A stretch of 64,000 nt of DNA from a virus. This document shows, in pieces, positions 1 through 64,000 of the stretch; the stretch's first letter is position 1, and the number at the start of each line of letters is the position of its first letter. The notes beneath the pieces are model-generated. The model made no database searches. It saw only the letters and a list, made by a program, of their open reading frames with translations, and had not been told where the DNA came from. The stretch covers positions 53,570 to 117,569 of the IMG/VR virus record IMGVR_UViG_3300045988_160359. One strand, 5' to 3'. The position numbers and the translations under genes were made by a program.

Positions 1-342
1 ATGGGGACTTTCATTAATAATAATAATAAAAAACAAGAATATGGGTTATATGCTTTTAGTGATAAAAATATTGTATTTAAAATTACAGATAATGGTGAGG
101 CTTATATTTAGTAGTCTGAAAAAGCATATTGTTTATCAAATAAAGACGAAAATAGTACTCCATATTCAGTAGGTAGCAAAACTTAGCCTGTATATTTTGA
201 TTAGGGAGTTCCTAAATAGATAGATATTAATTTAACAAATATTAATAATAAAATTTCAACATTAGAAAATACTATAAGTAATTTGCAATAGACTATTTAG
301 AGTTTAACAAATAGAATTATAGCATTGGAGAAAAAAAAATGA
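1..342 (+). CDS. 3' portion of a late gene (5' end probably outside the window); coiled-coil-like C-terminus; TAG read as sense
   Basis: Frame 1 is open from nt 1 to TGA at 340-342 if TAG is sense. It contains 11 in-frame TAG in 113 codons, including a tandem TAG-TAG at 109-114. The next gene follows with an RBS. Confidence 0.4.
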
Positions 343-362
343 GAGTAAAAGGAGAATGATGT

Positions 363-3300
363 ATGCCTACAAGATTATATCCTCCTCAAATAGCAGGAAC
401 ATTACCGGCATTTTACAAATCTTATGATAGTGCTACTGGAGTGTTAAAGGAAAGTTCAATCACTATCCCGTTTACTTCAAGTGCGCTAGTTAGTTCGGCG
501 GATTTTATAGGTTTTTATTTACGTTTGAAAACCTCTTCTACAAATACATATTTATTTCCGCCAATATATTCAAAAAATTATGATAGTAAAAATTCTACGG
601 TTACATTCACATTAACCGCTGATTAGAGTGCATTATTAAATGAAGGACAATATTACAAGGTCCAAATAGCTTATGTGTCTCAATACGTTGAGAGTGAAAC
701 TACTGATATTGACAATGATGGAAATATAATTACTAATAGTGTAATGAAAAAATTAACTGGTTATTATTCTACTATTGGAATTATAAAATGTGTCCAAGAG
801 CCTAAAGTTTCTATTTAGGGTTATTCAATAGATAGTATTAATTTATTTAATAATGAATTATTTGGTGTTTATGAGTTATCTTCAAATTTAGATTAGACTG
901 AAAAAGTTTATTCTTATAATTTTTCATTCTATTTAGAAGATGGGGATTTATATTACTCCACTGGAGAACTATTGCATAACAATGCTAATGATAATGAATA
1001 TGGTTTATCTATTGATTCAGTAGTTTTAAGTAGTTTTATAAAAACTAGTGAAATATATAAATTAATTTATACAGTTACTACAATTAATGGATTGGTAGTG
1101 TCTAGTCCGACTTATAGAGTAACTGCGGAAACATTATTAGCTCCTAGTAAAAATTTAAATATTTTACCAAGAGCGGATTCAGAAACTGGTAGTATTAAAA
1201 TTAATTTTAAAGGTTTAGAAAAAACTGTTAAAATTAAAAATACAATTAAGGAATTAAAACGCAAGGAAGTATATTATAATTATAGTAAATCATTAATTTC
1301 TTAGATTAAATAGAAAATCAATCCTGACTATGAATATTAGGGAGAATAGATAACTAATTTAGAATATTTATTAAAGATAAGTTCAAATGATGAAATGACT
1401 CGATTTTTTGTTGCATTACAAAAATTATTAAGAGATAATGCGGGATTAATAAGTGAACTTTGTGGAGTCTCTCCTGGTTTGTTAATGTCATTAGTTGATA
1501 TATCAGCAGACTATACTAAAGTGTTAAGTCAATATATTATATCAATTACAAAACCTACAATGGTTGAAAAAGATTTTTAGAAGATTAATGATCAATTTTT
1601 AAAGAATACTACAAATTACATTCTTACTACAACAGGAGACTATAAAAATTTAAATACAATATTATAGGTTCGCTTAAACTCTTATGTAGGATATTTATTT
1701 AGTAGTATTGCTACTGATGAAACAGATTTTGATGAAATAGTAACAGATTAGAATTTAATTAATTTGGCTCAAAGTGTTATTACATTAGCTGGATTATCTG
1801 AAGAATTGGCTATAGAATATATGAGTATTTTAGGGTATGCAGCTAGTATTGTTGCCACTGAAGAGAAATCTGAAGATACTTATTTTGGACAATATATTCT
1901 TGTGCGCGCAAGTGAAGAAGATGATTATCGCTCTTGGTTAGAATTAAAACGTTTTAAATTAGAAAATATACGACCTTCTACAATTAATTATGTCGATTAT
2001 ACAGTAAAACAAGGTGTTAAATATATATATGGGATTATTCAATATAATTTATTTGGTATTTATTCTGCAAGAATTGAGAGTGAACCAATTTCTGTTGATT
2101 TTGAAGATATTTTTCTATATGATGGAGAACGGGTGTTAAAAATAAAGTTTAATCCTAAGGTATCTTCATTTAAATCTACCATTTTAGAATAGAAAACAAA
2201 TACGATTGGAAATAAATATCCATTTATTTTTAGAAATGGAAACGTAAATTATAAAGAATTTCCAATTAGTGGATTAATTTCATATTAGATGGATAATGAA
2301 TTATTATTTTATAATCGTGAAATTGAAGAATATATTCGTAATTATACTCTTGATTTTAAATCGTTGGAACTAAAAGAACGTATTGAAAAACAAAAAGAAT
2401 TTCTTAATAAAATGGATTAGATTTTAATAAATCCTTGTGATTTAGTAGAAGAGAATATCCATAAAGAAAGAGATTTTAAAATTGAAGTATTAAACTGGTT
2501 AAATAATGGTAAACCTAAATTATTTAAATCAGGGCCTGAAGGCAACTTTATTGTTTGTATTATGAATGTATCATTATCTCCTACCGATAGTTTAGGCCGT
2601 ATGTTACATTCATTTACTGGTCAGTGTGCAGAAATAGCTGAGTTTAATTATAATAATTTATTACGTTATGGATTTATTAAAGCAGATATTGTTAGTAAAT
2701 ATGTTTCTTTATGGAAAACTTATTATTTAAATGAATATAAGCCTGGTAAAGATATCGAATTATTATTTGACTCAGGTATTAATTATTTTGCTGTAGAAGA
2801 TTTAAAACCTGGTAGTAGTATATTTTTAACTTATGGAGATACAATCGATCGGACTGAAGATGAAATCATAATAGGTATTACTGGAGCCTATCGATATGAA
2901 AATTCTTCACGAATTATTTCAAAAATTAGAATACCTAATAGTATATATAATCATCCAGTAGGAATATTAGAGTGCCAATATCAAGGTTTAAGATATTCTG
3001 ATTTTGATGCAATTACTTCAGTTAATTTAAAAACTATAGTAAGTAATCAATATGTTGGTGTTGATCCAATATTAGAAAATATTAAAGCATTTACTACCGA
3101 TCCCTCTGATTATGCTAAACAATTATTTATAAAAGCTTTAAAAGCTTTAAATGATCGAATTTTATTAAATGATAATTTATCCTATTCAGACTTGCGAGAA
3201 AAACTGGTTGAACGAGGATTTGAGCCAGGAGATATTGTTTAGCATATTAATTCATCATTTTATAACTATGAGAAAGACAAAGTTAAAATATTGAATTTAG

Positions 3301-6300
3301 AATAGTTAAAAATTAGAGTTAGAGAATTAATTCCTATTTATGCAGTTCCTTATGATTATATTACTCAAGAAGGATGGGATAAATTACCAGACTCTGTTGT
3401 TTATTGGAATTCTAATGGTATGACTACGAGTTGTTATAAGGATAAAAAAGAAAAAAGATTTAGTCGTAGTGATTATGAAAATTTATTTCCTAGTTAGAAT
3501 TTATTATATTCAGTAACACCTTTTGGTAAGCCTTATCCTATTGATGCATTAACTCCATTAGTCAAAGATTATTTTGATATTAATGATGAATTTTGTGTAT
3601 TTTAGATGTTTGAATATTCAAAAGAATATCAAACTTGGATGCCGACTTGTCGAAATAATGTTTTTAATATTGCTACTGGACAATATTATGATTGTTATTG
3701 GCAATCTGTTCTTAAAGAGTATGATACATCATATTATATTGGAGAAAAATATCGTTATGAATAGATAGTCGATATCCAACGGGATGAAGAAACACAACGA
3801 TATTATATTATAATTCAAAATAAAAAATATTATTTATCAGATGAATTTAATTTGTATGTTGAAATAAACGGAGAGTATAAATTATTAAAAGAAGTATATT
3901 TATTCCCAACAGATGAAGATGGATATTATACTATTATTACTAATAATGATTCTCGCATCCAAGATAATAGTTATTTAAATGAAGCTGTTCGTTGGAAAAA
4001 TAAAGATGATTATAACCCTGTTCCTGGGTATAATTTAACTACTAGAACTATTGATGAAAATAATATTGCTAAATCAATAGTAAAAGCTTCTGAAATTAAA
4101 CCATTTTATTTGAGAATAGATAATGCGATTCAATTAAATCAAGGAGATACATAGTATTATACAAATTTAGGTTCTCCAAAAGTAATAAAAATTGGGACTG
4201 GATTAATCGCTGAAGCTACATTTTAGTTAGAAGTATTAGACTATTTTACAGAAAAGAATGATGATAGTACATTTTTAGCTAAAAATAGATATTTAGAGCG
4301 ATCTGAAATCTTAAAGAATTTTTATCGAAATTATGAAATTTTAGGAGATGCTGATAATAATTTTTAGAGATTTTTAACATTGAGTCGTTTTTATAATACG
4401 TTATTAAAAGGATTAACTGATAGCAATAATACTCCTTATGAAGATAAAAATACATATTAGTCTAATTTAAATTCACCATTGAATTATCAGGATAGAACTA
4501 TTGTAAATGAAATTTTAAATACCGATAAAGACATAGATTTAAAAAATACTGAAATTGCTGATTTATGGACAGCAGATAATTCTTCAGTTGAAAAGAAAAA
4601 TAAAATCAAGAATGATATTAAAACTACGATAAATAAAATGCAAATAAATAAACGTATGAAAGAAGAATTAGTTTTACAAGATACTGAAGAAAATGATTTA
4701 TTTGATTTAATTAAAAATCCTACTAAAGAAGGTATAAATGATAAATTAGCTAAATTAAATGAACTATATGAATTATTAAGTTCTAATAAAAATACTACTA
4801 TTATGAATAACTAGAATATAGCTTCTGATTATGCTTAGAAATTAAAAAATATAGATTTTGCAGTTAATTCTTATAATAACGCAATCTATAATTATAAAGC
4901 TCATTTATGGTTGTATTGTTTAATTTATCAAAAAATTGCTAAATTAATATATATTGATACAGATAATTATGATGAAAAATTATTAACTGAAGATACATTA
5001 GATAAAATGGAAGCTAACATTTCAATTTCTAACATTTTAGCTGAAATAAAAAATCATTATAATAAAATAATAGAAAATAAAAGTGAGAATGCATCTAATG
5101 AAGCGGAATTAATAAAATAGAAAAATTATTATTTAAATGCTTACGGAAGTATTTAGAAAAATTATTCTGAAATTTTTACTTATAAATCAATTATAAATGA
5201 AAAAGAAGGAGATACTGCATTAGATGAATTATTAATAAAACAATTAATGAATTGTTTATTAGATATTTTTTATCAATATTCTGTAATGATATAGGCTCGT
5301 AAAAATATAAATGAATTATTGAATGGTAAGGCTTAGGATGAAGATACAGATATATTTAAAAAATATATTGGAATTAATGAAAATGCTGATTTGGCTCTCA
5401 GTAAAGTTAAACAAAAAATTAATACTTTAAAAATTGAAGTCATTAATAATAAAGACAATTTAACATTAGCAGATTTATTTTCATAGTATAATTTTTCTAA
5501 AGATAATGTTTCTTATTTTAATTCATTAAATTAGAAATTAATTTATTCTAAAAATAATGTTTTAGGATTTTTAGATAGTCATGCCACTCAAGTAAAAGAA
5601 TATGTCCAAAAAATTGATTATATGGAATATGTTTATAAAGGTGGTAAAGCTTTAGAATGGTAGCATTATAATTATTCTCATTTTATTGTATTTGATAGAT
5701 TGCCATATCAATTATGGGATTTAAATTCAAAAGATATAGATATAAAAAATTACACTTATGAAATTGAATTTAGATCAAGAATTTTAAAATCATTTAGTTA
5801 TTGGAAAGATAATAATTTTGGAGGAGAAGCTCCTGCTTATATATCTACTATGAGTTCAAATCAATAGAATGAAATACGCAGTCAAGTTAATCGTAAAATT
5901 ATTTTAGATATTAGTGAAGATAATATTAATACTGATGATTTAGATATTTATACAAGTTTTGAATTTGATGGATAGATGGACTCAGCTGAATAGAAAGCTA
6001 TTCAAAAAATTAAAATTCAAAAATTGTTAAGTATTATTGAGACATTTAAAGAGGCAACAGATTATCGTAGTGTATTAGATAGTTTAAGTGATTTAATTTC
6101 ATATATGAATAAAAATACGAATGGGCTTGGAGAAACTTGTTTTAAAACATTATATGGAGTTTCTGGCGATAAAGATTTAATTACAATACTTACAAATTAT
6201 AATTAGACTATAAATTCTATTCAAGATGAATTAATAAAAAGTAATGAATTAGATACTTAGTTTATTAAAATTGGACAAATTAGTAAAACTGATTTTGATT

Positions 6301-7469
6301 TTTTCAATCCTTCTAAAGTTTACTATATTTTAAAAGATGATAATTATTAGTTATAGACTGTTTATTCAAATACTGCTATTTATTATTTAAAATTAAAAGA
6401 TTATTTAGTAAAAACTCATTTTGAATATTATAATGCATTAATGGTAGCAAAAGATTATTAGAATATTACAACTGAATTGATTTATAGTGTTTTAAATTCT
6501 TAGAATACTAAAAAAGCAGAATTTGAATTAGGAAAAATGCAATTATATAATTCAAATGGTTTTGTTCCTACTGTTATCACTAAAGAAAATTATCAAGAGT
6601 GTAATAATTTTGTTTATAATAATGTTACGAAATTTGAACGACAAACATTTGATTCAGCTATTAGTTATGATAAAAAGTCCAAAGATACATTCTTAGCGAA
6701 AAATATCACTGGTGGAGATAATGCATTATCAAGTCATAATAATTCAATTAATGCAATTTTAACTAATTATAATAATTTAATAAAGAAAAATGGTATCGTA
6801 AATAAATTATATTCAACTTATTCAAAATTAGGCAATACCCCTATTGTTTTTACAGATGAGGGAAATAATGCTCTTAATGCATTAGATTTGTCTAAAATAA
6901 ATATAAGTATATTAACTGCATCAGATACAACAGCAGTAGGAAAATTTAAACATCTATTATTAATTAAATATTTATCTAAATTTATTAATTTGTTCTATTG
7001 GTGCAACACTTAGTTGTTTGTTGAATATGATTTAAATATTCGCTTAGCTGAATTATATACTAATTTACCAAAACCATGGTCTGAAGCTTCTGAGAACTAT
7101 CCTTCTATAACTGCTCATGGTATTGTATATTGGTATTTAGAATATGTTTTAAATAAAGCTATAAATGATTATAATGATGCATTGGAATAGGCGGAATTAT
7201 TAAATATTTTTTATACAAACAAATAGACAAACTATAAAGAGAAATAGGCATTATATGAGGCTAAATATAAAGAATATTTATAGATTTTTACAGCATTTAT
7301 GGCTCCTGAATATAAGGAATATTGGAAATATTATAACTCATCTGATATATTTAATAAAAATGAACAAATGAAAAAGTTAATTGAAGAAGTCAAAAATCTA
7401 TGGTATGATTTTATTTTAACTCTTGATAAAGGATTCAAAAAAGAGATAGAGGCGGGTATGTACCAATGA
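363..7469 (+). CDS. Giant virion/tail protein (2368 aa; tape-measure-like position and size); TAG-recoded
   Basis: RBS aaaggagaatgatgtATG precedes it. Ten ORF-track fragments (363, 972, 1395, 1764, 2562, 3852, 4479, 4911, 6024, 6537) are all in frame 0. Codon-by-codon reading finds only TAG (about 45) and no TAA/TGA in frame 0 until TGA at 7467-7469. The gap 3243-3851 was checked position by position and is open. The frame-1 ORF 3574..3768 is a spurious overlap. Confidence 0.75.
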
Positions 7470-10237
7470 AAAATAACCCATTGTTAGATACAAATTTTTT
7501 AAAACAGTTAGATTTAGAAAATTAGAAAGAAATATTTATTAAAATTATTAGTCTAAATCAAAATGAAGAACCTATTGAAAGTATCGAAGGCCGTGCAACA
7601 GGAGGATCCATTAATATTGATGGATCCTCCGCAGTTAGACGAACTTGTTCAATTTCATTGGTTGCTGAAGGAGTTAATATTACTGATGTATATTGGGGAT
7701 TAACTACTAAATTTTCATTACAAATTGGATTAAGCAATAATATTAATAAAGAATATGAAAAAATTATTTGGTTCCCACAAGGTATTTATCTAATTACATC
7801 ATTTAAAACAGATGTCACTACTAATGGATATAAAATTTCTATTTCAGGTAAAGATAAAATTTGTTTATTAAATGGTGAAATTAGTGGTAATTTTCCTAAT
7901 CCAATTGATTTTGCTATTGAATTAGTAGAATATAATTCTAAAACATTAACAGTTGATGCTATGATTACTAAATATAATTTAGTAGAAAATTTACATTGGA
8001 AAGAAAATGAAGGAAAACGATATTTAACTACATTAGGTATTTCTTATATAAATGAACTTACTAATGAAGAATCTGTTGCAGAAATAATTGATGTAAAAGT
8101 TGGAAATAAAGTTAGTAAATATAAAAAAGTAAAAAAATCAATTGGATATATTATTAGAGAAATGATTCATCATTATGGAAATGAACCATTCCATAATATT
8201 TTAATTAAAGATGTAGATAATAAAGGTTTAGAATTATTAAAATATTCAGAGGGTGATTTTTATGCGTTTTTAGATAAAACTGGAAAATATACTCATCTAG
8301 AATTTATTGATACATTAACTAGATATAAAGCTGATACAAATGTTCCAATTAAATTGAGCGATTTAACTGATGGAGATTTTTCTACCCCTGATAATCTACG
8401 GACAAAAATAAAAAATAATATTAGTGATACTGATTATTATTATGTGAATAAAATTAATGGCACTGACGCTGCAGGTTATCGTTCAGTCGAATTATATTGG
8501 CCTTCTAATGATGGTTTAGTTGTAAATGCAGGCGATACAATTACTTCTGTATTAGATAAAATTTGTTCAACGTTTGGTGAATATGAATATTTTTATAATG
8601 TATAGGGATAGTTTGTTTTTTAGAAAAAATAGACTTATATAAATTAGTCTTGGGATAATATTGTAAAGACAGAAAATAGTGCAAATCCAGATTTAGATTA
8701 GGATATTGATAATATTTATAAAGAAATTAAAGGAGAATATAAATATAGTCAATTATATGAAGAAGCCGCGATGCTAGCCTCTAAAAGTATTTATAATTTT
8801 TCTAATAATATTTTAATTTCATCATTTTAGAATATGCCTGATTTTTCTAAAATTAAAAATAATTTTACTATTTGGGGTAAACGTAAACCAGCATCGACTA
8901 ACAGCGAAGGTACACCAATTCGTTTGCGGTACGCGATTGATGAAAAGCCTAAGACTTATACCACTTTTGAAGGAAAAACTTATCGCACTTATGACCCTTT
9001 AGAGACGGGTGAATTTGTTAAAACTCCGAATCCACCAGATACATTGCTTGGAGAGCCTCTTGATGAAAATTGGTGGGATGTGAAAGATTGGGCGGAATTA
9101 TATCGAATGTTTATTGGAGAATATCCAAATCGAATGTTAAGTGCCTATTATTCAGACAAAGATGGTGTTTTTATTGATTTAAATTCATTATATAAATCAG
9201 CCACAAATGAAGAATTAATGCAAAAAGTCTATGGTCGTTCTATTGGAAATTATTTTGGCAGATGGATAAATAATTGGCAAGATGAAAAATTATATGTTTT
9301 TGATTTATTACCTGATAATACTATTGGTTATGTAGGACATGGTCCTTATTGCACTCACTATTGGGATGAATGGTTTGATCCTTTATACCAAAAGGGTGGT
9401 AAAGCATATGTATATAAACCATTAATGCCAGGACAAGATAAAAATACAGTATATTATGCTAAATAGAATTGGCGAGAGCTAATTTATCAAATGGCATTAG
9501 ATTATCAATTATATGGCCATAATGATAATTATGCAGTAAAATTAGCTTAGTTAAATCCAGAATATCCTAATGGCAGAACAGGTTATGAAAGTTATTATGC
9601 AGATTTTTTAGCTGAAGACGGATGGCGTAGTATATATAATCCAAAGTCAGAAGATTCTAAAAATTTTTTTGTAGGGAATATGTTGACTGATAAAGAAAAA
9701 GTTTATTACGGCTGGAATAGAAATGTTATAAATGATCCAACTCTTTTAAATTTTTGGATTGATTTTGTCGAAGATAGTGAAAGTACTATAGGTAAATATT
9801 CTGTTCGAGCAATTGGAGATAGGCCGAAAATTGTTAATAATGATGCTATTAGAGCTATTATTTATAGAGATATTCCTAATATAATTTATATTACTCCAGA
9901 AAAGTATGAACTGCAAAAATAGTAGAATTTATTACAAGATGGATATGATTATTTACCTTTACCAAATATTTATGAGAGTAAATTTTCAATTACTACCAAA
10001 GGTAAAAGTGCTTATTCTGAACTTAATGATTTATTATATTAGTATGCTTATATGAATGAAAAAATTAATATAAAAACTATTCCAATATATTATTTAGAGC
10101 CAAATAATATTATTACAGTCGATGATAATAATAGTAATATTCATGGAGAATATGTCATTAATAAAATATCATTATAGCTAACGCATAATGGTATAATGAC
10201 AATTACAGCGACAAAAGCGCCTCCAAGATTATTATAA
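7466..10237 (+). CDS. Large structural protein (923 aa), baseplate/distal-tail-like position; TAG-recoded
   Basis: ATG at 7466 overlaps the upstream TGA (caATGAaaa). The frame-2 fragments 7658, 8834 and 9680 join through TAG codons. Gaps 8606-8833 and 9467-9679 were verified open. The gene stops at TAA 10235-10237 and is followed by a strong RBS. Confidence 0.75.
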
Positions 10238-10253: not shown

Positions 10254-10598
10254 GTGGCAAAAAAAATTATTTAGTTTAGATATTTTGGCGAATTAAATGA
10301 AAAAAACTATCCACCTACAATTACTAAGACTAAATTAATGTCTGGAGTTGTATTTGATGGATATACTCCAATTATTAGATTAGGCATTCAAGCGCTTCCT
10401 GGTACTAAATTTAGATTAAATGCAAATCAAGATTATATTATGATTGGTAGTATTGGTTTATATGAATTAGATATGACTCAAGGATCAGGTTCAGTGACTT
10501 CTATTAATTTTGATGAAATGTCATTAACTAATATAGATGAGAATGAAGATGCTTATTTGTTGGTTGATATATTATATGAATAGGAGGGATCTAAATGA
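10254..10598 (+). CDS. Small structural-module protein (114 aa), GTG start
   Basis: RBS aggagaaggag lies 5 nt upstream of GTG 10254. Frame 0 contains ORF 10338..10583, reads through TAG 10581-10583 and ends at TGA 10596-10598. Confidence 0.5.
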
Positions 10599-27825: not shown

Positions 27826-27901
27826 GTAAATATAAATAATATTTTGATGTAAATTTTTATAATAAATGTATATAATTTACAAAGAGGAAAGGAGTTATAA
27901 A

Positions 27902-50840: not shown

Positions 50841-51437
50841 TTAATAAGTTATGTCCAGATGCTCCGGCCACCGAGACAGGAATAATGCTAAATCTTTATA
50901 TATACATTCTAATTCCGCAGGAGTATTATTTATATATAACCAATTACATAAATCATCAGCATCTTCAAAATCAAGTTTATCTGTTTTATATCGACGAATA
51001 ATTTCATCAATATCCGGGTTAGCCTCTCGATTTAGCTATCTAATTAATCGAATTTTATCATCTGCGTGAATATAAACGATAATTAAATTTACTCGTTTAT
51101 CATGTAATAAAATCTCTGCGCCTTCTGGATTAAATACTCCTACATTGATAGCGCCTTCTTTGACTGATTCAATTCCTGTGCCATAGCACCATTCATTAAA
51201 AACAGTAGCTTCAAACATTTGATTCTATAAAATCATTTCAGCAAATTTTTCTGCTGAGATAAAATGGTAGTTAATACCATCCACTTCTTTTTCTCTTGGA
51301 GGTCTTGAAGTATAACTTATAATTTCATGTAGAGGTAATTTACCATTATAATAATGTTTTGTATCATCAATTAGTTTACGGAGAATGGTATCTTTACCAC
51401 TCCCCGCTTCACCAATTAATGCTAATATATTATACAT
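50841..51437 (-). CDS. gmk: Guanylate kinase-like nucleoside monophosphate kinase (198 aa), with 2 in-frame TAG
   Basis: It has Walker A GEAGSGKDT and the guanylate kinase signature TSRPPREKEVDGINYHFIS...CYGT. ORFs 51225..51437 and 51036..51218 are joined through TAG 51225-51227, and a second TAG lies at 51036-51038. It stops at TAA (tta 50841-50843). Its ATG overlaps the dnaE TAA (TAATG). Confidence 0.7.
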
Positions 51438-54400
51438 TAATTAGCTCCTCCATTGTATCTTTCATCTTTTAATTCAATATCACCATTATCTAAAATTTTA
51501 TCAATTTTATACAACTGGTGACCGCCAGAACTAGCATACTTTTTTGCTATAAAATTATCGCCTTGACGAATGCCTTGAACAGCAATCATATTACCACGAT
51601 TAAACCAACTTTTTTCCATTACTTTTTTAGTGCCATCAATTTGTTTTTCTGAAATCTGTTTATCAAATAATGAGAAATATTCTTTTCTAAATTTAACTTC
51701 GACAACTCCAGAAGTAGTAAGTAATGTAACTGTAGATTTAGTTTTATTTTTAGCAATACAAGTTCCGCAAATCTTATGTAATTTATACATAGTAATTGTT
51801 TTATTGCCTTTAGAAAATGTTTTATCAATAATGGGCTCTTCTGGCAGATGGAAGAAATCAACAAATCCATATTTACTATTATTTACATGGGCTAATTCAT
51901 GCTCATGATAATAGAAACATAAGACTTCCATTTCCCACGCTGAAATAGATTTAGATGCATATTTATCCCAATCTTCTTTAAATATTTTATTATTTAATTT
52001 ATTTAAAATAATATCTTTATTTTCTGCAATCCAAGTTCGGAATATATCCATATATTTTTGATATACTTTATCCCAAGCTTTAGAATCTAATAAATAACAA
52101 CTACCAATTAAATCATCGCAACCAATTTCAATTAAAAAATTAATCGCTCGTTCATCAACTTTATAGATATTACCATCTTTACAAACAGCTTTTAAATATC
52201 TATTAAATTCATAAACTCGTCTTGCCATTACATATTCATCTTTATCTTCTGGTAATAAATTATAACGAATTAGAGTTGCTAAATTTTGTAATGTTAAACG
52301 AGATTTTTTATCACACGTTTCCCAAATATACCAAATCATTAAATCTTTACGGTCCATCATTTCATCAAATGCACCGCTTTTAATCAATGAAATCATTGCT
52401 TGCTTACTTGGTTTAATACGATAATAAAAATCTTTCACTGATATATACGGACGATTTGCAATAATATTATTAATCAAATCATCGCCAACGTTCAACAATC
52501 CTTTTAAGCCAAATAAAATTTGGTTATTTTCAACATCAGGCGCAAATCCAAATCTAGCTTTATTAATATCAGCCAAACTTACTTTAATACCAGCTGACTG
52601 TATATCTCCAATAGCTTTTGCGATTTTACCATAATCAGTGCTAGCTACTTTTTTATTTTTTGATTTATTCTCCATTATATCTTCTGGAGACGCACCACAA
52701 TATTCTTCACCGGAATAATCATAATCTTCATCAGTTATTTCTTCTGGTTTATTTTCTAACGCTCCACTGTTTACAATTAAACAAGCGCAATTCCAATAAA
52801 TAGGATTGAAATTAATTGCCAAATAAATCATTTGAATTGCAACAAATGAATAAGGAAGAGAGTGATTTAAGCTAAACGCATATCCTAACTGAGGAGCGAT
52901 CGCATTTTCCCAAAAATATTCAGCATTATGTTCATTAGTAAATTTACTAAATACTTGCTCTTTTAATTGAGGAATTTTTGCCATTTGCTTTTTAGCAACA
53001 ACTTTACGCGCGCTATTTGCTTCGCCTAATGTAAATCCAGCGACATCCATAAGGATTTCCATCATTTGCTCTTGAAGTGGACAACATCCATAATATCTAT
53101 CACAATGCTTGTGCATTTTTTCAATCATTTCTTCTGGCAAATGATTATCTTTCATTTCTTTATCAAAAACTTGAATACCAGCTTTTTGGATTCGATAATA
53201 TCTATCTTGCTGACTTTCTTTGCCCTTTTCACTCATTAGACGCATCATAGCGTTTGCAGCGGTCATTTCCATAGGATCTTTTGGTTTCAATTTTTTAGCA
53301 ATAGCTAAACCTACACCAGTAGAGAATTGGAATACGTCAAGAATATCTCCCGCCGCCAAGTGTTCCCAAATGCGTTTATCAGAAGTATCTATTACTTCTG
53401 GATGAAGATATTTATTATAAAAATCACGTAGACCAATATCAGGGATTTGATTATCTTCTTTTAATAAATTATAGCATTGAATAATTTTATCGCAAGCTTC
53501 TGTTACCAGGAAGTCATATTTAGTATCTCCGGCGGCTTCGGCTTTATGTAAGTCCCAACAAGTAATTAAATCACCACTAGGAGTTTTCATAAATGATGCA
53601 GTTTCAAATGGGTCTTCACCATATAAAATAACACCAGAAGCATGAGAAGAACGTTTATTAATAATTCCTTCAATATATACAATAATATCCAATAAACCAG
53701 GATATTGATTTACCTTTTGGATAAATGTAGTAACTGGCTTTCTATCTTTATCAGGATTACCATTTACCACATCTTTCATCGGCCATAAAATTCCACGTTC
53801 CTGCGGGATTAATGAAGACATAAATTGAGCTTCATCTACATCAATACCATTGGGATAATCATCACTTCTATAGCCACGACAAGCAGTTAAGATTGCTTGC
53901 TTTGTTCCTTCAGTTCCAAATGTTGCAACTTGAATTAAACCTAATGTTCCACGTTCTTTACGAATAGCACTAAAAATTGCAGGGCGTTTACTTGGCGCAA
54001 GATCGATATCAATATCAGGCAATTCCGCGCGCTCTAAATTTAAGAAACGCCAATATGGTAATCCCCAACGAATTGGATCTAGCTGAGTAATTCCTAATAA
54101 ATAATTAGATAAGAAACCAGTTGCTGAACCTCGACCAGGACCAACAATACTCCCGCACTCCCAAAACAAATCAATATAATGTTTAAATGTATTAAAATAA
54201 GCAAACAAACAGTCTTCAAGTTTTTCGCCAATATTTTTAATTACATTAGCTTCAGTTTCAAGACGAGATATATATATTTCATTCTCATATAATTGTTTTT
54301 CTTGCAAGGCTTTAATACATTCATTTATCCAATATCGTTCTTGAATATCATCACTATTAATTAATGAACAAATAACAGGATATTTCTCAAGCCAATCTGC

Positions 54401-55390
54401 TGGAATAAATCCTTTTTTATAATCAATTACTTCTACTCTTGGAATTTGTTGTTTACGTTCCAGAGAATAAAATTTTATTTTCTTTTGAATTTCTAATGTA
54501 TTGTCAAAAATCCAATTCATAATCTCTTGAGGAGTTTTATCTTTATCCCAAGTATCCATATATGGTAGCATTAATTCTTCTACTTCATCACTATCCATTA
54601 CATAAGCAAACTCATAGAATGAATCAACTTCACGCTCGCCATCTTTAGAATTTAAATAAGCTTTATGAATTGGTCTATCTTTCTTTGTTAAATAATGAGC
54701 ATCGGTTCCAATTACCATTTTTAAATCATATGCTTTTGCTACTTGATAAATCTTTTGATTTACTACAAGTTGGTCTTTCATGGTAGATGGAGCGCACTCC
54801 AAATAAAAATCATCTTTACCAAAAACATTTATACAAAATTCAATGAATTTAACAACATTATTATAATAAATGCTTTTAGTTTGCATATCGCCTACTACTT
54901 CAGCCTCATACATTGGATATAAATTAGAACCTAATTCTCCACCAATGCAAGCTGTTGTTGCGATAATATGTCCTTTGTATTGTGCCATTACATTTTTTAA
55001 TTCAGACTTTAATGTTGGCACACGTTCCATTTTTCTATCAGTATAAGAATTAATCCAAGCAATTGAACTTAATTCTTTTAATGCTTTATAACCAATTTCA
55101 TCTTTTGCCAATAGAATAAAATGATAATACTTTTGACCACAATCTCTTGTATCAGTTAAATAAATTTCATTACCTAGCGCAATAGTAAAATCAGGATGCT
55201 CTTTTAAAAAATCTTTTGCAAATTGATTAACTTCCATATGAGCAGATAAACAGTCATGGTCAGTAATTGCTATACCACTTAATCCTAATTTTTCTGCTGT
55301 TTTAATCAACTCTTCTGGTCTATTAATAGAATCTAATAAACGCAGATTTGAATAGTGAGTATGGTTGTGTACGCCAAAATATGGTCGCAT
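51437..55390 (-). CDS. dnaE: DNA polymerase III alpha subunit (DnaE-type C-family polymerase) with N-terminal PHP domain
   Basis: The 1317-aa protein has a PHP domain (HNHTHYSNLRLLDSI...ITDHD) and the polymerase core motif GSIVGPGRGSATGF. The start was chosen at the second ATG (55388-55390), which has the strong RBS aaagaggtgga. The first ATG at 55408 lacks an SD. There is no in-frame TAG. Confidence 0.85.
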   Translation of the reverse strand: MRPYFGVHNHTHYSNLRLLDSINRPEELIKTAEKLGLSGIAITDHDCLSAHMEVNQFAKDFLKEHPDFTIALGNEIYLTDTRDCGQKYYHFILLAKDEIGYKALKELSSIAWINSYTDRKMERVPTLKSELKNVMAQYKGHIIATTACIGGELGSNLYPMYEAEVVGDMQTKSIYYNNVVKFIEFCINVFGKDDFYLECAPSTMKDQLVVNQKIYQVAKAYDLKMVIGTDAHYLTKKDRPIHKAYLNSKDGEREVDSFYEFAYVMDSDEVEELMLPYMDTWDKDKTPQEIMNWIFDNTLEIQKKIKFYSLERKQQIPRVEVIDYKKGFIPADWLEKYPVICSLINSDDIQERYWINECIKALQEKQLYENEIYISRLETEANVIKNIGEKLEDCLFAYFNTFKHYIDLFWECGSIVGPGRGSATGFLSNYLLGITQLDPIRWGLPYWRFLNLERAELPDIDIDLAPSKRPAIFSAIRKERGTLGLIQVATFGTEGTKQAILTACRGYRSDDYPNGIDVDEAQFMSSLIPQERGILWPMKDVVNGNPDKDRKPVTTFIQKVNQYPGLLDIIVYIEGIINKRSSHASGVILYGEDPFETASFMKTPSGDLITCWDLHKAEAAGDTKYDFLVTEACDKIIQCYNLLKEDNQIPDIGLRDFYNKYLHPEVIDTSDKRIWEHLAAGDILDVFQFSTGVGLAIAKKLKPKDPMEMTAANAMMRLMSEKGKESQQDRYYRIQKAGIQVFDKEMKDNHLPEEMIEKMHKHCDRYYGCCPLQEQMMEILMDVAGFTLGEANSARKVVAKKQMAKIPQLKEQVFSKFTNEHNAEYFWENAIAPQLGYAFSLNHSLPYSFVAIQMIYLAINFNPIYWNCACLIVNSGALENKPEEITDEDYDYSGEEYCGASPEDIMENKSKNKKVASTDYGKIAKAIGDIQSAGIKVSLADINKARFGFAPDVENNQILFGLKGLLNVGDDLINNIIANRPYISVKDFYYRIKPSKQAMISLIKSGAFDEMMDRKDLMIWYIWETCDKKSRLTLQNLATLIRYNLLPEDKDEYVMARRVYEFNRYLKAVCKDGNIYKVDERAINFLIEIGCDDLIGSCYLLDSKAWDKVYQKYMDIFRTWIAENKDIILNKLNNKIFKEDWDKYASKSISAWEMEVLCFYYHEHELAHVNNSKYGFVDFFHLPEEPIIDKTFSKGNKTITMYKLHKICGTCIAKNKTKSTVTLLTTSGVVEVKFRKEYFSLFDKQISEKQIDGTKKVMEKSWFNRGNMIAVQGIRQGDNFIAKKYASSGGHQLYKIDKILDNGDIELKDERYNGGAN

Positions 55391-55461
55391 AATCCACCTC
55401 TTTCTCATTTATTTTATTTATAATAATATTATATCATATAATTTATTATAAATCAATTGAA

Positions 55462-56658
55462 TTATTTTCTAATAAGAACTAAACGCTCTTTAGCTCTTGT
55501 GGCTAAAGTATATAGATATTTTTTATGAGTTTCTCTATCATAGGGAGGAGCTTCTTCAAATCCTAATACTTTATTATATTCACTACCTTGGGCCTTCCAA
55601 CAAGTAATAGCATAGGCATATGAAAAATCAAATGGAGGGTCAGGACAATTTTTATTCTTTTTAATTTGATAAATTTGTTTTCCTTCAAATGTTTTTTTGC
55701 CAGTTAATAATTGATTATAATCAATAGGGACTCCACAAAATGTATCATCATCATCAAGTCTTAATTGAGCATACATAAATGGTACAGGATTTTTATAAAT
55801 CCAATATGGAAATCGTATATCTTCGACATAAAAATCTTCTAATGTTCCAATAGTCCCATTAGTTAACGCCCATGTATGATTAGAAGACATAAAATCCCAT
55901 TGGTTATGTAATCCAATTAATTTATCTCCAATACAAGGCCGGTCTGGGTCATATCCTTTTTGAGTTCGGACTATACGATTAATATCATTTCGTTTTTCAT
56001 TTGTTGAGCAAATAATTTGGTCTGCCCAATTATACATCTAAGGAAGCATTTCATCCCATTTAAATCGAATTAAAACTTGTTCCTCAGTACCCTTATATGA
56101 AGAGATTGGTTTGTTATCACGAATCCACATTGAAAATCTAATAATTTCACTATCTTGAGCTTGACGCATAATTTCATCAAGGAAAACATGCGGATTGTCG
56201 AGCACATGATTATTATCTTCATCGACTATTGGCGGTAATTGACCTGGGTCTCCAGTAGCTAAAATATAGATGCCATGAGATAAAAGCAATTCCCACATAG
56301 CTTTAGGGAGCATTGAAACTTCGTCTACTACAATTACTTTATAGTGTACTATTTCTTCTCTTGGTCTTGGGAAAAATTTATATGTTCCATTCGGCGTAAT
56401 CCGTGCTTTATATAATAACTAATGAGCAGTAGTCGCATTTGGACAACCTTTAGTCTAGAGAACTGTAGCTGCTTTACCAGTAAATGCCACATAACAAACT
56501 TCTTCTTCTGGATTTACTCCCAAAGCAGAGATAATAAATTTAATTAGAGTTGATTTACCACTTCCAGCATAACCTGCTATTACTGTATATCGTTCTTTAT
56601 TTTTATATCGTTCTACTGCTATTTTTAATCCTTGTTCTTGTTTATTCGTTAAAATCAT
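55462..56658 (-). CDS. Dda/RecD-like SF1 DNA helicase (398 aa), with 3 in-frame TAG
   Basis: ORFs 56455..56658, 56038..56313 and 55462..56037 are in one frame, separated by TAG at 56455-56457, 56419-56421 and 56038-56040. Read-through restores Walker A GYAGSGKST, motif Ia TAH-(TAG)-LL, Walker B VIVVDEVSML, GDPGQLPP and motif VI WKAQGSEYNKV. Confidence 0.8.
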
Positions 56659-57838: not shown

Positions 57839-59584
57839 TTAAAAATAATAATTTGCCCTATCTACAATTTCGTAATCTTTAATCATAACTTGAGGACTAA
57901 TTTTATTATTCCAAATATTTCGTTCGCATTCACCAACGATATTAATTGTCACATAACCTAATTCAGAATATAGTTTATCATATTCCTCTTCAGACGACCT
58001 AAACTTCATAAAATTGATGCCGTTAGGCAACATTATCTTTAGAGTAGGATTTTTATCTGGCGATAGAATACGTATATTATCCTTGTGGACTTTAATACCT
58101 TCTACAGCAATTTCAGCTTCTTCTACTCCTTGGCCCCATAAGCTTTTCATTCCTGCGATGTCAATAACTTCATCAGGAGTCAGCTCATCTGATTTGTAGA
58201 TAAAATCTACATTATAGATTGGGGTGAAATCAAAACCATCTAGAGCAGAATTTGTAGATGCAATAAATGCGCTAATATCTTCATCTTTAATACCAATACC
58301 AAATGCATTAGCATGACCTTCAGCATATATAACGTATTTATTATTTTCTAAAAATCCTCTAAAATCTTTCAATCGAGATTTGTCGTATCCTCTACCAGAC
58401 CCTTCCCAAGTTATTGTACCATCTTCATTTTCAATTTTATTTAAGATTAAAACAGGTCTTTGATATTCACTCATTAATTGATTTGCTATTAATCCAGTTA
58501 GGTTGCGGTCAGTAATCAAATCATCTAATTGAACGATTAAGATTTTATTACTCAATAAATTTTGATTTACGATTATCTATTCAATTCTTTCCAAGCTATT
58601 GTCTCGAATTTTGGTTTGTCTACTTTTAATATTGGTACAATTTCGACAAGCTTGTTCTACTCTCGTCTCTGCTTGACCTTTACATCCACGTTTCGTTGAT
58701 GGGACAAGTTCGTATCCCCGAAAATCAAGCATTGATTCAAATAGCATGAGCTTTTCTTCTTGCGTTCCGACGCGAGTTGTCGCGTTAATTAATGGAGCAA
58801 TATAAAAAGCTACTCCAATAGGTGTAATCTCATTTGTAAAATGAAATTGGTCTTTATCAATCGCACCTCTGAAGTAAGGATTGCGGATTTGTTGAAGTCC
58901 TTTATCTATTAATCTTCTTGTTTCAAAATCTCGCACATCCATCATGTCGGCCACCAATCCAAGAGCCACTAAATCTAAAAACTTCTATGCATGGTCAGTT
59001 TTTAATAACATATCAATATAGCAACAAAATTTCCAGACCATTGCTACACCAGATAATGATTTAGTAGGATAATCACATAACTAATTATTAATTATACAAG
59101 CATATTCAGAAATGTGATCAGCTTCATGGTGGTCTATTACCAGCACGTCAACTCCGCTCAAATTTAAATATTCATGGGCTTCATAATCATTTGAACTTGA
59201 ATCTGGAGCGATTACTAATTTAACATCTTCCGGAATTGTATCTGGAATGATGCCGTGCTGTTTTCCCATATGGACACGATAAGAAATGTTATTATTCACA
59301 AAACTGGGAAATAGACAATATAGATAATTCATTAGTAATGCAGCAGAAGTATATCCATCGCAATCACTATCTACCTATATCAGAACTTTGTCATTTTGTG
59401 AAATATGTTTAATAAGCATTTTAGCACCTTCATCCAAGTGCGGTATTAACCGAGGGTCTAAAATGTCATTATCAGTAGTGTTTAAATAATGATTAATCTA
59501 ATCGTAGGGTATTCCACGATTTACTAGCACTTGTTCTACCGGTGTATATATCGGGAACTCGGGTGCTCTTAGGCGGTATTCCAT
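57839..59584 (-). CDS. recJ: RecJ-like DHH-family single-strand DNA exonuclease (581 aa), with 5 in-frame TAG
   Basis: Reverse-strand RBS aaggaggg precedes ATG (cat 59582-59584). ORFs 59081..59332, 58577..58969 and 57839..58555 are in one frame. They are joined by TAG at 59513-59515, 59375-59377, 59081-59083, 58985-58987 and 58556-58558. Motifs present are VDSDCDG (DHH motif I), VIDHHEADH (DHH) and ALGLVADMMDV (RecJ motif). It stops at TAA (tta 57839-57841). Confidence 0.75.
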
Positions 59585-59968: not shown

Positions 59969-60122
59969 ATTGTGATTCTCCTTTTATTACTTTTCCACAG
60001 TTGGGACATTTATCATATTCTTCTTTAAAACTTTTATAACATAATGGACATTGATATCTTATATCTGGAAATGGATCTAAATCTGCGGCTGCATTATATT
60101 TATTCCAATGTAATTCGCTCAT
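59946..60122 (-). CDS. Small Zn-ribbon protein (58 aa; CPLC...CPNC)
   Basis: Its ATG (cat 60120-60122) overlaps the primase TAA (TAATG), and the RBS aaagga lies upstream. Two CxxC pairs are present. It stops at TAA (tta 59946-59948). Confidence 0.5.
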   Translation of the reverse strand: MSELHWNKYNAAADLDPFPDIRYQCPLCYKSFKEEYDKCPNCGKVIKGESQYERYRLG

Positions 60123-61225
60123 TATATTATAATCCTTTCTTTAAATAATTTCAAGAAAATATCTTTACCATCATCGATTGGTGAATCCTTATAGCCAAGT
60201 AATCCTGTTTTATCAAACATAAATGATATTGTAGCATAATTTTTAAATTTACTTCTTGCTTTTAATAAATTTAATTTAAGATGTTTAAATTCATCATCAC
60301 CGAGTTCTTTAAACTGCCTATCGAATGCAATAATAATTTCTTCAACTCCACAATCTAATAATAATTGAACTTGATGACTAGATAAATTACTACCGCAACA
60401 GGCCACAGATATATCATTATTAAGACCAAAATAAGTTTTATACTTTAAAACAGATTTTTCCCCTTCAAATACTATTGCTTTTTTAAATGTCTTTATAGCA
60501 TTTTTACTCAGATTTAAGTTATATAAATTCATACCAAGAGGATGGCTATACCATTGATTATTTAAATGAATGGGTCGATATTTTCCATATAATTCACACT
60601 CTTCTTTACATAATGATCGCCCACGCAAACCAATAAATCGTCCATCAATATCATAATGTGGAATTGTTATTTGATCGCCTCCTGGATAAAAACCAATTTT
60701 AGCAGCATTTAATGCTTCTTGTGAGATACCTTCATCTAACCAAGGTGTTAATTGAACTTTATAATTGAATCTTGTTAAAATTTTTTCATCATAAGTTTTT
60801 AATGTTATTTGATTGGTTTTCTTCTCAATACTTTGAATACGACTATATTCATTAAAAATTTTCCAATCTTCAAGAGTTTTGGCTTCATCTAATTCTTGAA
60901 TTGTTCCACCTAAACCAAAACGATGAGCTACCCATAAAACTGCTGAATTTAAATCAAATTCTCGCTCATGTTGAATACGCATTACTTTCGTGCATAATTC
61001 AAATACATCAAATGTGGCGTCGCATCCGGTATAACATTTAAACAATCCCGTATTTTCATAATAGTAAAGTTTTTTACTACCTTCGCCAGGCATATTATGA
61101 CAAATAGTTGAAGAGACGATCCCAGTTTCATTATACTCAGGATCGCCTCCCCATTCTAACAACAAGTCATAAATATTATCGGTAGTAAGTTTTTCCCGGA
61201 TTTCTGACTTGTCGAATACAACCAT
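60122..61225 (-). CDS. dnaG: DnaG-like DNA primase (CHC2 zinc finger plus TOPRIM)
   Basis: It has the CHC2 zinc-finger pattern STICHNMPGEGSKKLYYYENTGLFKCYTGCDATFDVFELC and the TOPRIM-like segment VFEGEKSVLKY. The 367-aa ORF is intact with no TAG. Confidence 0.75.
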   Translation of the reverse strand: MVVFDKSEIREKLTTDNIYDLLLEWGGDPEYNETGIVSSTICHNMPGEGSKKLYYYENTGLFKCYTGCDATFDVFELCTKVMRIQHEREFDLNSAVLWVAHRFGLGGTIQELDEAKTLEDWKIFNEYSRIQSIEKKTNQITLKTYDEKILTRFNYKVQLTPWLDEGISQEALNAAKIGFYPGGDQITIPHYDIDGRFIGLRGRSLCKEECELYGKYRPIHLNNQWYSHPLGMNLYNLNLSKNAIKTFKKAIVFEGEKSVLKYKTYFGLNNDISVACCGSNLSSHQVQLLLDCGVEEIIIAFDRQFKELGDDEFKHLKLNLLKARSKFKNYATISFMFDKTGLLGYKDSPIDDGKDIFLKLFKERIII

Positions 61226-61400: not shown

Positions 61401-62096
61401 TTATAGAATTAATTTTTCTAATTCATTGCTTTTATTTAAATATGAAACTCTAATTAATGGGATATTATGAGTATCACAATAATTATCTTTTAATGTATCA
61501 CATAACTATTGATATTTAATTTTTTCTTTTGTATTCCATCCACCCATATAATTTATTGAATGTGTTTCTCCATCATACTCAATTAATTTTTTTACATTAT
61601 CCTAATCATCTAAAATAGCAAAATCAAATCTTAAGTATCCATTTTTAGGAGATAATAAATCAAGAAAAACATATTCTTTTTTATATTTAATATTATTTGT
61701 TTTAAGAATAGTCTCAATAAGATATTCGCCGTGAGATTGCTTCATACAACCGCAAGACATAGTATTATTCTATTTTAAATTATTTGTAGATACTTCAGTT
61801 ATTTTTCCACAATCACATTGGCATTCCCAAATAATACCTCTATTATTGGTTCGTTTTCCAGTATCTTTTATAACTGTTAATTTACCAAATTTCTAACCAA
61901 TTAAGGTATGTGAAATTTTTTCTTTATGTAAACATCCACAAGACTGAGTTAATCCTGATATTAAATTACTATGCTAAATACTTTTAATATTTCCACAAGA
62001 GCATTGACAAATCCAATATTTATTTTTTGATTTTCGTTCTGTGTCTAATTTTAATACAGTTAATTTATTAAAAACTTGACCTGTTAAATCAACCAT
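61401..62096 (-). CDS. Homing-endonuclease-like zinc-finger protein (231 aa), with 5 in-frame TAG
   Basis: Reverse-strand RBS aaggaga precedes ATG (cat 62094-62096). Two repeats of the form YW-C-C-CGN...L-SG-T-SCGC are present (YWICQCSCGNIKSI-(TAG)-HSNLISGLTQSCGC and WECQCDCGKITEVSTNNLK-(TAG)-NNTMSCGC). A C-terminal nuclease-like segment (YLRFDFAILDD...IEYDGETH) follows. It stops at TAA (tta 61401-61403). It is invisible in the ORF track because of the TAG codons. Confidence 0.55.
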
Positions 62097-62160
62097 CTTT
62101 TTTCATCTCCTTCTCTTATTTTTAAGAGAAATAGAGAGCATTTTAATGAATTTTGTCCGC

Positions 62161-63693
62161 TCAAAACGCGCTCTCTTCATCAAAATTAATTTTTATATCA
62201 TCTATTGGAACTAACTCATATCCATAAGTAGTACAAAACATAGGTTTAATTCTACAAGTTCCTAAATCTGCTTTGCACCACAAATATACACCTTTATATC
62301 TTCCACGTCTATTTTTATAGACCGACATTTTTATTGTTGGAATTTCAAAAATATTTGTTTGCAAAATATCATTTAATGCTACTAAATCATCATCTTTTAC
62401 TGGTAATAAAATTGAACCATAGTCAATTTTATCAGCGATAGCTTTTGCTCCTCGTAATAGATTTTGGTCTGGTGTTTCAGCATCTTGATATGCACCATTT
62501 AACTGAGTAGCAGACATAATAAATACGCCATATTGATTACAAATATCTTTTAATTTAGTTGATAACATAAATAAGATATTATCTTCGCGTAATTTAACAC
62601 CACCACTACGACGAGTAATTTCTTCAAGAATTTTTAAACTTGTATGAATATAATCATGAAATACATATTTTACTTCATGGTCGCGAATACCTTTTTTAAT
62701 TTCATTCTCAACATCCATCAGAGAAAAATCAGGTAATTCACGAATGTAAATAGGACTAGAAGCAATAATTTTACCAGCCTCTAATACTCGCTCCTCTTCA
62801 TCGCCAACATATAATTTTGTATTCAAAATATGTTCTTCATTAACATTTGATAAAAATGCTAACATCATAGTTTGAATTTCACTAATTTCTTGCTCTGTGG
62901 TAATATATAAAACTGGTTCACAAATACCATTTTTAATCCAACCAAATGTTTCATCATAAATTTTATTACACCCAAGATTACAAGCATCGGCAATCATTGA
63001 ACGAGTTTTTCCAATACCAGAAGGGGCTGAACGCAAATAAAATTTCTTTAATCTGGCTCCACGCGTCACTATATTAACAAGTGGCCCGTATAATGGTGAA
63101 CCAATTTCTGGATGTTCCTTTAGAGAATCGAGCAAATCAAAAATTCCATGACCTGCTTGAACTGCTACACCTTCTATATTATTTACATATTCATATTTAA
63201 TCGTTTCAATTCTATCATCAACTAATTTTGCGATATTTTCTAATGATGAATTATCTAAATTATCTTCTTGTAATTGTTTTTTCTCGACATCTAAAATATT
63301 ATCAGGGTCATAAATAAATGATACATCTATACCATAATTATCATATGCTCTTAATAGAGACATTTTCTTTAAACGGCTATAATAGTAATCAAATGATAAT
63401 GGTTTTGCTGTATCTGTAATATTTAAAAGCCATTCTTCGCCTTTATTTGCTTTATATATACCTTGATATTTTGGACGAGAGGCTAAGAAATCATTAATAT
63501 TTTCTAAGGTAACCTTTTCAGCACCTAATTCATGAATTTTATAAATAGCCCCAAACACAACTCTGTGGAATGGGTCTGGAAAATCTTCTTCGGTTATTGA
63601 ATACTTATCAGTAAAATCAAGTAATTGTGGCGAATTATAAACACACCCAATCACTTGCATTATTGCAGTTGGGTCGACATATTTAGATGCCAT
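62161..63693 (-). CDS. dnaB: DnaB-family replicative DNA helicase
   Basis: The 510-aa protein has a DnaB-like N-domain and a RecA-like core with Walker A SAPSGIGKT. Reverse-strand RBS gaggaggg precedes the ATG. There is no TAG. Confidence 0.75.
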   Translation of the reverse strand: MASKYVDPTAIMQVIGCVYNSPQLLDFTDKYSITEEDFPDPFHRVVFGAIYKIHELGAEKVTLENINDFLASRPKYQGIYKANKGEEWLLNITDTAKPLSFDYYYSRLKKMSLLRAYDNYGIDVSFIYDPDNILDVEKKQLQEDNLDNSSLENIAKLVDDRIETIKYEYVNNIEGVAVQAGHGIFDLLDSLKEHPEIGSPLYGPLVNIVTRGARLKKFYLRSAPSGIGKTRSMIADACNLGCNKIYDETFGWIKNGICEPVLYITTEQEISEIQTMMLAFLSNVNEEHILNTKLYVGDEEERVLEAGKIIASSPIYIRELPDFSLMDVENEIKKGIRDHEVKYVFHDYIHTSLKILEEITRRSGGVKLREDNILFMLSTKLKDICNQYGVFIMSATQLNGAYQDAETPDQNLLRGAKAIADKIDYGSILLPVKDDDLVALNDILQTNIFEIPTIKMSVYKNRRGRYKGVYLWCKADLGTCRIKPMFCTTYGYELVPIDDIKINFDEESAF

Positions 63694-64000
63694 TCACACC
63701 CTCCTCTTCGTCTAAAAATGAAAATAAATTTTTCTTATAGGGTTTCCGTTGAGGTATTGGTATAGTTATTTCTTGAACTTGTGGAACATATAATGAGATA
63801 TTTTTATCTTCATTTCTTTGTTTTATCATCCATAAGTTATAGTAATAATTATAAGCATCTTTATATATCCAAGGAATTATACCAACTCCACCATTTGCTT
63901 TTTCGACAGAATTTCCTTTAACTTCATAAAAATATATAAGGGCTTTTAACATACCTGAATAAGTATAATTGTATTCCTCTACATATTGATTTAATTGTTT
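63683..64000 (-). CDS. Hypothetical protein, 5' end outside the window (frame open to nt 64000)
   Basis: ORF 63683..63952 stays open upstream to the window edge. Its TAA (tta 63683-63685) overlaps dnaB by 11 nt. Confidence 0.4.
   Translation of the reverse strand, partial: KQLNQYVEEYNYTYSGMLKALIYFYEVKGNSVEKANGGVGIIPWIYKDAYNYYYNLWMIKQRNEDKNISLYVPQVQEITIPIPQRKPYKKNLFSFLDEEEGVNGI

Follow-up and report, generated by a model that had tools for sequence, protein, structure and literature searches.

Recoding of the amber codon TAG in gut phages has been described since 2014-2022, and a stretch of phage DNA whose genes fall into short fragments under the standard code raises the question of whether TAG terminates translation there or specifies an amino acid, and which one. 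We examined this for 64,000 nucleotides (nt) of the IMG/VR virus record IMGVR_UViG_3300045988_160359 (positions 53,570 to 117,569), a stretch of 30% GC hereafter called the window, in which a + strand block of tail genes meets a - strand block of replication genes. A preliminary description, made from the letters of the window, had proposed a genome-wide reassignment of TAG, most likely to glutamine (Gln), in a lineage of the crAss-like or Lak type. The analysis showed that TAG is a sense codon in the window and, as judged from codon substitution and codon composition, that it stands for Gln, and it revealed that TAG is used very unevenly between genes.

TAG is a sense codon in the window

Under the standard code, stop-to-stop open reading frames (ORFs) of at least 300 nt in the window summed to 47 kb with a longest frame of 3972 nt, versus 71 kb and longest frames of 8202, 7110, and 6624 nt when TAG was read as sense, whereas reading TGA as sense instead of TAG brought no gain in the ORF total of the window. 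With TAG as a sense codon, 35 genes were obtained at a coding density of 92.7% across the window, and they ended as anticipated in the preliminary description, at TAA (26 genes) or TGA (9 genes). The lengths given there for six giant genes, 7107, 2772, 3213, 8175, 6531, and 1722 nt, were all reproduced exactly from ATG to stop, and the good ribosome-binding sites ascribed to these genes were recovered as well, since a Shine-Dalgarno motif (GGAG, GAGG, or AGGA upstream) preceded all six of them and 25 of the 35 genes overall.

The 170 in-frame TAGs were spread over 24 of the 35 genes, and the frequency of TAG was 0.86% per codon in frame versus 2.15% off frame. Not a single in-frame TAA or TGA was present in 19,737 codons, which bears out the earlier claim of frames free of these codons for up to 8.2 kb, while the other two frames contained them at 9.8% per codon; an ORF of 2724 codons without TAA or TGA has a chance probability of about 3e-123.

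Relatives of the phage were gathered by searching IMG/VR with six phage proteins, and the TAG-joined regions aligned to them, end to end or through the TAGs, as contiguous proteins. The first giant gene of the tail module (363..7469, + strand; 2368 amino acids [aa]), which contains 45 in-frame TAGs and ends at TGA, aligned over its entire length with relatives of 2368 aa at 89.7% identity and of about 2470 aa at 50% identity, with aligned sequence on both sides of all 45 TAGs. For the next gene (7466..10237, + strand; 923 aa; PHROG 32343 and 1887, "tail protein"), which overlaps its predecessor through an ATGA, the alignments of relatives spanned 14 of 14 TAGs. In total, 63 TAG positions of the first tail genes were kept as TAG in relatives.

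Matches to Pfam, NCBIfam, and Protein Data Bank (PDB) entries likewise extended across TAG positions. On the - strand, relatives' alignments spanned all five TAGs of a RecJ-like DHH exonuclease gene (57839..59584; Pfam DHH at residues 66-209, and RecJ_OB), in which the DHH motifs reported earlier were present. In a Dda/RecD-like superfamily 1 helicase (55462..56658, - strand; Pfam AAA_30 at residues 14-188), two of the three TAGs lie between Walker A and Walker B, so that the Walker B motif noted in the preliminary description (VIVVDEVSML) is found downstream of both, and Dda (3upu), RecD2 (3e1s), and 9kwf align through the two. An NrdG-like activase (48028..48522, - strand; Pfam Fer4_12 at residues 15-153, E value 4.7e-36) has the expected CxxxCxxC motif at its N terminus with its one TAG directly after it, and aligns through this TAG to PflA (3c8f). 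The guanylate kinase signature was also seen to be restored by read-through, as both TAGs of the guanylate kinase gene (50841..51437, - strand) fall within the Pfam Guanylate_kin match at residues 4-160. Altogether, 85 of the 170 TAGs were bracketed on both sides by alignments to relatives of less than 95% identity, and the DNA of relatives that was compared did not reach into 11-41 kb, the stretch that holds most of the remaining TAGs.

Should TAG still terminate in this phage, the broken genes would have to be explained by pseudogenization, by faulty assembly, or by rare read-through. Standard-code ORFs do break at every TAG, and the window holds no tRNA. Against termination stand the long frames devoid of TAA and TGA, the conservation of TAG as TAG in relatives, the catalytic motifs downstream of TAGs, and a dedicated tRNA with anticodon CUA in contigs of the same species (see below). 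Moreover, the right-hand 2.1-11.8 kb of the window were found at 100% identity in four assembled contigs with other sample accessions, one of the samples behind them being the human gut metagenome ERR209496 (PRJEB1220), and this recurrence argues against an assembly error; leaky read-through of a gene with 45 TAGs would yield essentially no full-length product. We therefore give this explanation practically no chance. These data showed, by ORF statistics, domain matches across TAGs, and end-to-end alignments to relatives, that TAG is a sense codon.

TAG is assigned to glutamine

The amino acid was deduced with a codon test in which window genes were aligned to six-frame ORFs of related loci, TAG was masked, and codons were read at each aligned position. 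The test uses DNA only and is independent of existing annotation, and likelihoods were computed from an empirical substitution table built on the same alignments. In the replication block, 276 distinct TAG-versus-sense events were counted, of which 73 (26%) paired TAG with Gln versus a background of 4.1%; Gln gave the best fit, and the runner-up, lysine (Lys), was 74 nats worse. The tail block yielded 201 events, 57 of them (28%) with Gln, which again fitted best, with Lys 103 nats behind. Among relatives at 90-99.5% identity, the replication block showed Gln in 14 of 15 events, and among the closest relatives of the tail block the figure was 4 of 5. CAA was the most frequent partner codon of TAG, and since it is two mutations away from TAG, mutational proximity cannot account for the pairing.

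Codon composition pointed in the same direction. The share of CAA plus CAG among all codons was 2.1% for the tail block and 3.1% for the replication block, and addition of TAG raised it to 3.2% and 3.5%, respectively; thus, TAG exactly fills the Gln codon deficit of the tail block. The earlier assignment to Gln had been based on one anecdotal repeat within a tail fibre gene (33640..40170, + strand; 2176 aa, 17 TAGs), where SGTAGQLFF and GGTAG(TAG)YLV are indeed found at residues 1875 and 1944; it is now carried by two independent codon-substitution tests together with codon composition, which at the level of DNA show TAG to be a Gln codon. A public protein collection already holds the RecJ in its exact form, 581 aa long with Gln at each of the five TAGs, and hence public gene calls already read through the TAGs of this phage. 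Where solved structures align to TAGs, they have M, S, G, S, S, R, and H, but these homologs are too distant to bear on the identity of the amino acid and speak for contiguity only.

We also considered that TAG could be a sense codon for another amino acid, e.g., Lys, glutamate, tyrosine (Tyr), tryptophan (Trp), or pyrrolysine. Lys was the second most frequent partner of TAG (32 of 276 and 36 of 201 events), ARAGORN labelled the phage tRNA with anticodon CUA as "Pyl", and the body of this tRNA is not obviously Gln-like. However, AAA is simply the most frequent codon in this AT-rich genome, the "Pyl" label derives solely from the CUA anticodon, and the short variable loop of the tRNA rules out the bacterial architecture of the Tyr, serine, and leucine types. 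As Gln leads Lys in two independent gene sets, near-identical relatives swap TAG for Gln codons, and TAG makes up precisely for the missing Gln codons of the tail block, an amino acid other than Gln is very improbable.

Contigs of the same species carry a tRNA with anticodon CUA

The window contains neither a tRNA (ARAGORN and Rfam) nor any other Rfam RNA, in agreement with the preliminary description, which had reported the absence of a suppressor tRNA; nor was a tRNA present within 10 kb on either side of the polymerase gene or in the 10 kb to the left of the window. Rightward from the window, topoisomerase, lysis, flotillin-like, and RNA-repair-like genes are followed by a dispersed tRNA array, and a search of the rest of the genome, which had been suggested at the outset, revealed a tRNA with anticodon CUA, hereafter tRNA(CUA), in contigs of the same species. 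It was called by ARAGORN at locus L282 (5499-5572) on contig IMGVR_UViG_3300045988_140174, where it reaches 55 bits with the Rfam tRNA model. This tRNA shares the strand of the replication genes and is about 52.6 kb away from the polymerase gene, which places it about 44 kb past the right edge of the window. An identical tRNA body occurs in contig 147738, which shows 98.6-99.2% nt identity to the window (same species), and in three other close contigs. The tRNA has a short variable loop and, by eye, a Trp-like D-arm. Because its body has no clear nearest type, its Gln identity is deduced from the codon data alone.

Several further observations concern tRNAs and the surroundings of the tRNA array. 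Ten unrelated IMG/VR contigs (L283-L297) carry a tRNA(CUA) with the same anticodon arm, CTGACTCTAAATCAG, on different bodies, so that suppressor tRNAs of several origins appear to share this arm; in one of them, L289, the tRNA(CUA) adjoins a tRNA-Gln(UUG). At L262 (330-513), an Rfam tRNA match of 51.8 bits without an ARAGORN call extends over 184 nt, which implies a tRNA with an insertion of about 110 nt; in the relative L263, this position is taken by an ordinary tRNA-Lys. To the right of the window, L201 (4686-9829) encodes, by eye, an SHMT-like ORF, an ORF with a tRNA-binding-domain-like N terminus (possibly an RNA ligase), a P-loop kinase, and a metallophosphatase, which suggest a candidate tRNA/RNA repair set near the tRNA array.

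TAG use is gene specific

In the tail block, TAG accounted for 34% of TAG, CAA, and CAG codons combined (11.0 per 1000 codons), and in the replication block for 10% (3.5 per 1000 codons). Four genes of the replication block have no TAG at all: those for a DnaE-type DNA polymerase III alpha (51437..55408, - strand; 0 TAG versus 45 CAA/CAG), the anaerobic ribonucleotide reductase NrdD (48519..50768, - strand; 0 versus 33), the replicative helicase DnaB (62161..63693, - strand; 13 CAA/CAG; Pfam DnaB_C), and a putative primase (60122..61225, - strand; 367 aa, 11 CAA/CAG), the last recognized by eye from zinc-ribbon and TOPRIM-like motifs. TAG is found in the genes for RecJ (5), the helicase (3), guanylate kinase (2), and NrdG (1). 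The same pattern holds family-wide, with TAG shares of 0.5% for the DnaE polymerase (47 loci) and 1.1% for the putative primase (34 loci), and of 19-33% for RecJ, NrdG, guanylate kinase, and RuvC. DnaB, too, has practically no TAG in the family. TAG use is thus strongly gene-specific rather than uniform. With respect to the "genome-wide" reassignment proposed at first, TAG is a sense codon as claimed, but the wording was too broad, since 11 of the 35 genes, the core replisome genes among them, do without it.

A bias of TAG toward late genes, together with a model whereby the uninfected host can read the early genes and the late ones depend on a suppressor, has been published (10.1101/2021.08.26.457843), and the uneven TAG use seen here fits this model of early-standard and late-recoded genes. 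We consider it highly probable that TAG is Gln in this phage, that TAA and TGA are the sole stops, that a phage tRNA(CUA) decodes TAG, that the replisome avoids TAG, and that the code change acts as a lock on the timing of late genes. In this scheme, the phage-encoded tRNA(CUA), presumably charged with Gln by a host enzyme, would compete with host release factor 1 for TAG, with only TAA and TGA terminating. The TAG-avoiding genes for the DnaE polymerase, the putative primase, DnaB, and NrdD would be translatable in a naive standard-code cell, whereas the tail genes, with up to 45 TAGs each, would be completed only after the suppressor tRNA has built up; by this means, the code change would also set the timing of late genes, an idea that the literature already contains.

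Several points weigh against this scheme. RecJ, the helicase, NrdG, and guanylate kinase belong to the replication block and yet carry TAG, and the holin gene has none, although a gene with just 8 Gln codons carries little statistical weight here. The tRNA(CUA) comes from contigs of the same species rather than from the very genome to which the window belongs; with 54-64% identity to each of the tRNA types compared, a U1.U72 mismatch, and G73, it shows no clear likeness to tRNA-Gln in its body. In addition, no gene for a release factor or an aminoacyl-tRNA synthetase was noticed in about 120 kb, where ORFs outside the window were mostly read by eye without a systematic search.

An early/late model implies that host release factor 1 reads TAG before the tRNA accumulates, and TAG might accordingly have a dual meaning, i.e., a stop early or in some contexts and Gln later, with some genes truly ending at a 3' TAG. 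Several genes, e.g., 10338-10598, 31020-31832, and 45290-45784, have a TAG 5-12 codons before their TAA or TGA, which speaks for such a reading. No gene of the window, however, needs TAG as its terminator, and the TAA and TGA ends are packed tightly on the next starts, as in the ATGA overlaps at 7466-7469 and 10595-10598. For the TAGs close to the C terminus, the results agree with either reading; overall, a dual meaning is considered unlikely, and the reading of TAG as Gln throughout, with TAA and TGA as the only stops, is preferred.

The window belongs to a ~197-kb gut phage

The window is part of a tailed phage of about 197 kb from a human gut metagenome. Contigs carrying the exact DnaB and RecJ proteins reach 197,589 bp, contig 140174 is apparently circularly permuted at 197.7 kb, and one related contig of 402 kb contains two copies about 193 kb apart. 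Well over 100 related IMG/VR contigs of 100-200 kb were retrieved, with protein match and not TAG recoding as the basis of the count. Two distant relatives of the polymerase occur in metagenome-assembled genomes labelled uncultured Tenericutes and Clostridium, a weak hint as to the host, and the phage family probably infects Firmicutes.

The best GenBank phage matches of the DnaE-type replicase were Bacillus SPbeta-like and Enterococcus phages at 39% identity; a protein search of GenBank phages with the polymerase returned nothing above 40% identity, and megablast of the 6.9-kb NrdD-polymerase stretch (48519-55408) gave no match in the GenBank phage collection. The crAss-like or Lak-type lineage inferred in the preliminary description did not hold up. 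TAG-to-Gln recoding in crAss-like phages is reported to have been validated by metaproteomics (PMC9523058). These phages have in common with the window phage the recoding, the human gut origin, and an enrichment of TAG in late genes; their genomes, however, measure about 100 kb. Membership in Crassvirales was rejected on the grounds of the replicase and of family contigs that measure 150-200 kb. Lak megaphages share TAG recoding, low GC, and the gut habitat, but have genomes of about 560 kb, and membership in this group (genomes above 500 kb) was rejected on the basis of the contig sizes given above.

Gut phages with TAG read as Gln and with suppressor tRNAs have been surveyed by Borges et al. 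(10.1101/2021.08.26.457843) and comprise the Lak, crAss-like, Garnet, Amethyst, Jade, Sapphire, and Agate groups. The window phage resembles them in its TAG-to-Gln recoding, AT-rich genome, phage tRNA(CUA), heavily recoded structural genes, and variably recoded replication genes. Its size is within the published ranges of Jade (210 +/- 35 kb) and Sapphire (201 +/- 22 kb), size being the only property compared with these clades. It differs in that TAG is present or absent from one gene to the next within its replication module and in that its holin is TAG-free, whereas Borges et al. stress recoded lysis genes. The phage phAss-1 of the proposed Phassvirus (PMC10607447) is also from the human gut, with in-frame TAGs in hallmark genes and suppressor tRNA genes, but its genome is 136 kb, and although its relatives BK046881 and BK025033 are GenBank records, neither the 48519-55408 stretch of the window nor the polymerase has a close match among GenBank phages.

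The phage may represent an undescribed family-level lineage of ~197-kb gut phages with a DnaE/YorL-type replicase, a code switch that divides the replication module, and a suppressor tRNA that does not stem from tRNA-Gln, a combination that we put forward only tentatively. In such a lineage, the polymerase, the putative primase, and DnaB would remain TAG-free, and RecJ, the helicase, NrdG, guanylate kinase, and RuvC would be recoded. If the tRNA(CUA) is not derived from tRNA-Gln, Gln insertion would depend on anticodon-driven charging by a host enzyme. The classical su7 suppressor, a tRNA-Trp(CUA) that inserts Gln through anticodon-driven charging, offers a parallel.

Other genes of the two blocks

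The remaining + strand genes that we noted in the tail block include a structural gene (10595..13807; 1070 aa, 16 TAGs), a gene of 303 aa with 5 TAGs (13924..14835), the gene in the longest stop-free frame (16664..24838; 2724 aa, 17 TAGs; 8202 nt from stop to stop), a tail-fibre-like gene (27866..29569; 567 aa, 5 TAGs) whose C-terminal region resembles by eye that of the tail fibre gene at 33640-40170, and a gene for a glycine-rich protein (40192..41913; 573 aa, 8 TAGs; PHROG 1589 and 5811).

Inside the tail-fibre module (31020-33495, + strand), a gene for a 270-aa protein with a CxxxC-repeat C terminus (31020..31832; 5 TAGs; weak match to TIGR04118, a Cys-rich family of ribosomally synthesized and post-translationally modified peptides [RiPPs]) is followed by one for a radical SAM/SPASM maturase of the CXXX-repeat target family (32137..33495; 4 TAGs; Pfam Radical_SAM), whose TIGR04115 match (E value 8e-101) covers residues 32-401 and crosses three TAGs. 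Judging from these matches, the pair resembles a thioether system of the RiPP type whose target would be a structural protein of the phage. A second set, consisting of a Cys/Gly-rich protein and two radical SAM genes, is located in the tRNA array of a relative (L282, 7032-10711).

In the replication block, an HNH homing endonuclease gene (61401..62096, - strand; PHROG 374 and 559) contains 5 TAGs, equal to 45% of the Gln-equivalent codons of the gene. The closest contigs (L005, L055, and L022) lack the segment 61404-62159, which suggests that the endonuclease gene is a mobile insertion in which the recoded codon is itself in use. The TAG-free holin gene (42300..42713, - strand; PHROG 13712 "holin", E value 5.7e-33) is found where the two convergent blocks come together. 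Outside the window, L120 (5188-7400) bears what may be another lysis cassette, made up of a cell-wall-hydrolase-like ORF of 612 aa and a membrane ORF of 126 aa, and this cassette does contain TAGs. The sign of the GC skew flips precisely between the + strand tail block and the - strand replication block, with a cumulative peak at about 42 kb (41900-42300), and this switch is consistent with transcription-linked and replication-linked strand asymmetry alike.

Implications

The reassignment described here is solid and striking, yet it would not surprise a specialist and opens no new question. For annotation, its consequence is immediate, as a standard-code gene call destroys every tail gene, and the genome must be called with translation table 15. 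A large family, delimited here by protein match, joins the list of phages in which TAG is Gln, and it provides a clean, family-wide case of gene-specific TAG avoidance that can be used to test the idea of a code switch as a timer of late genes.

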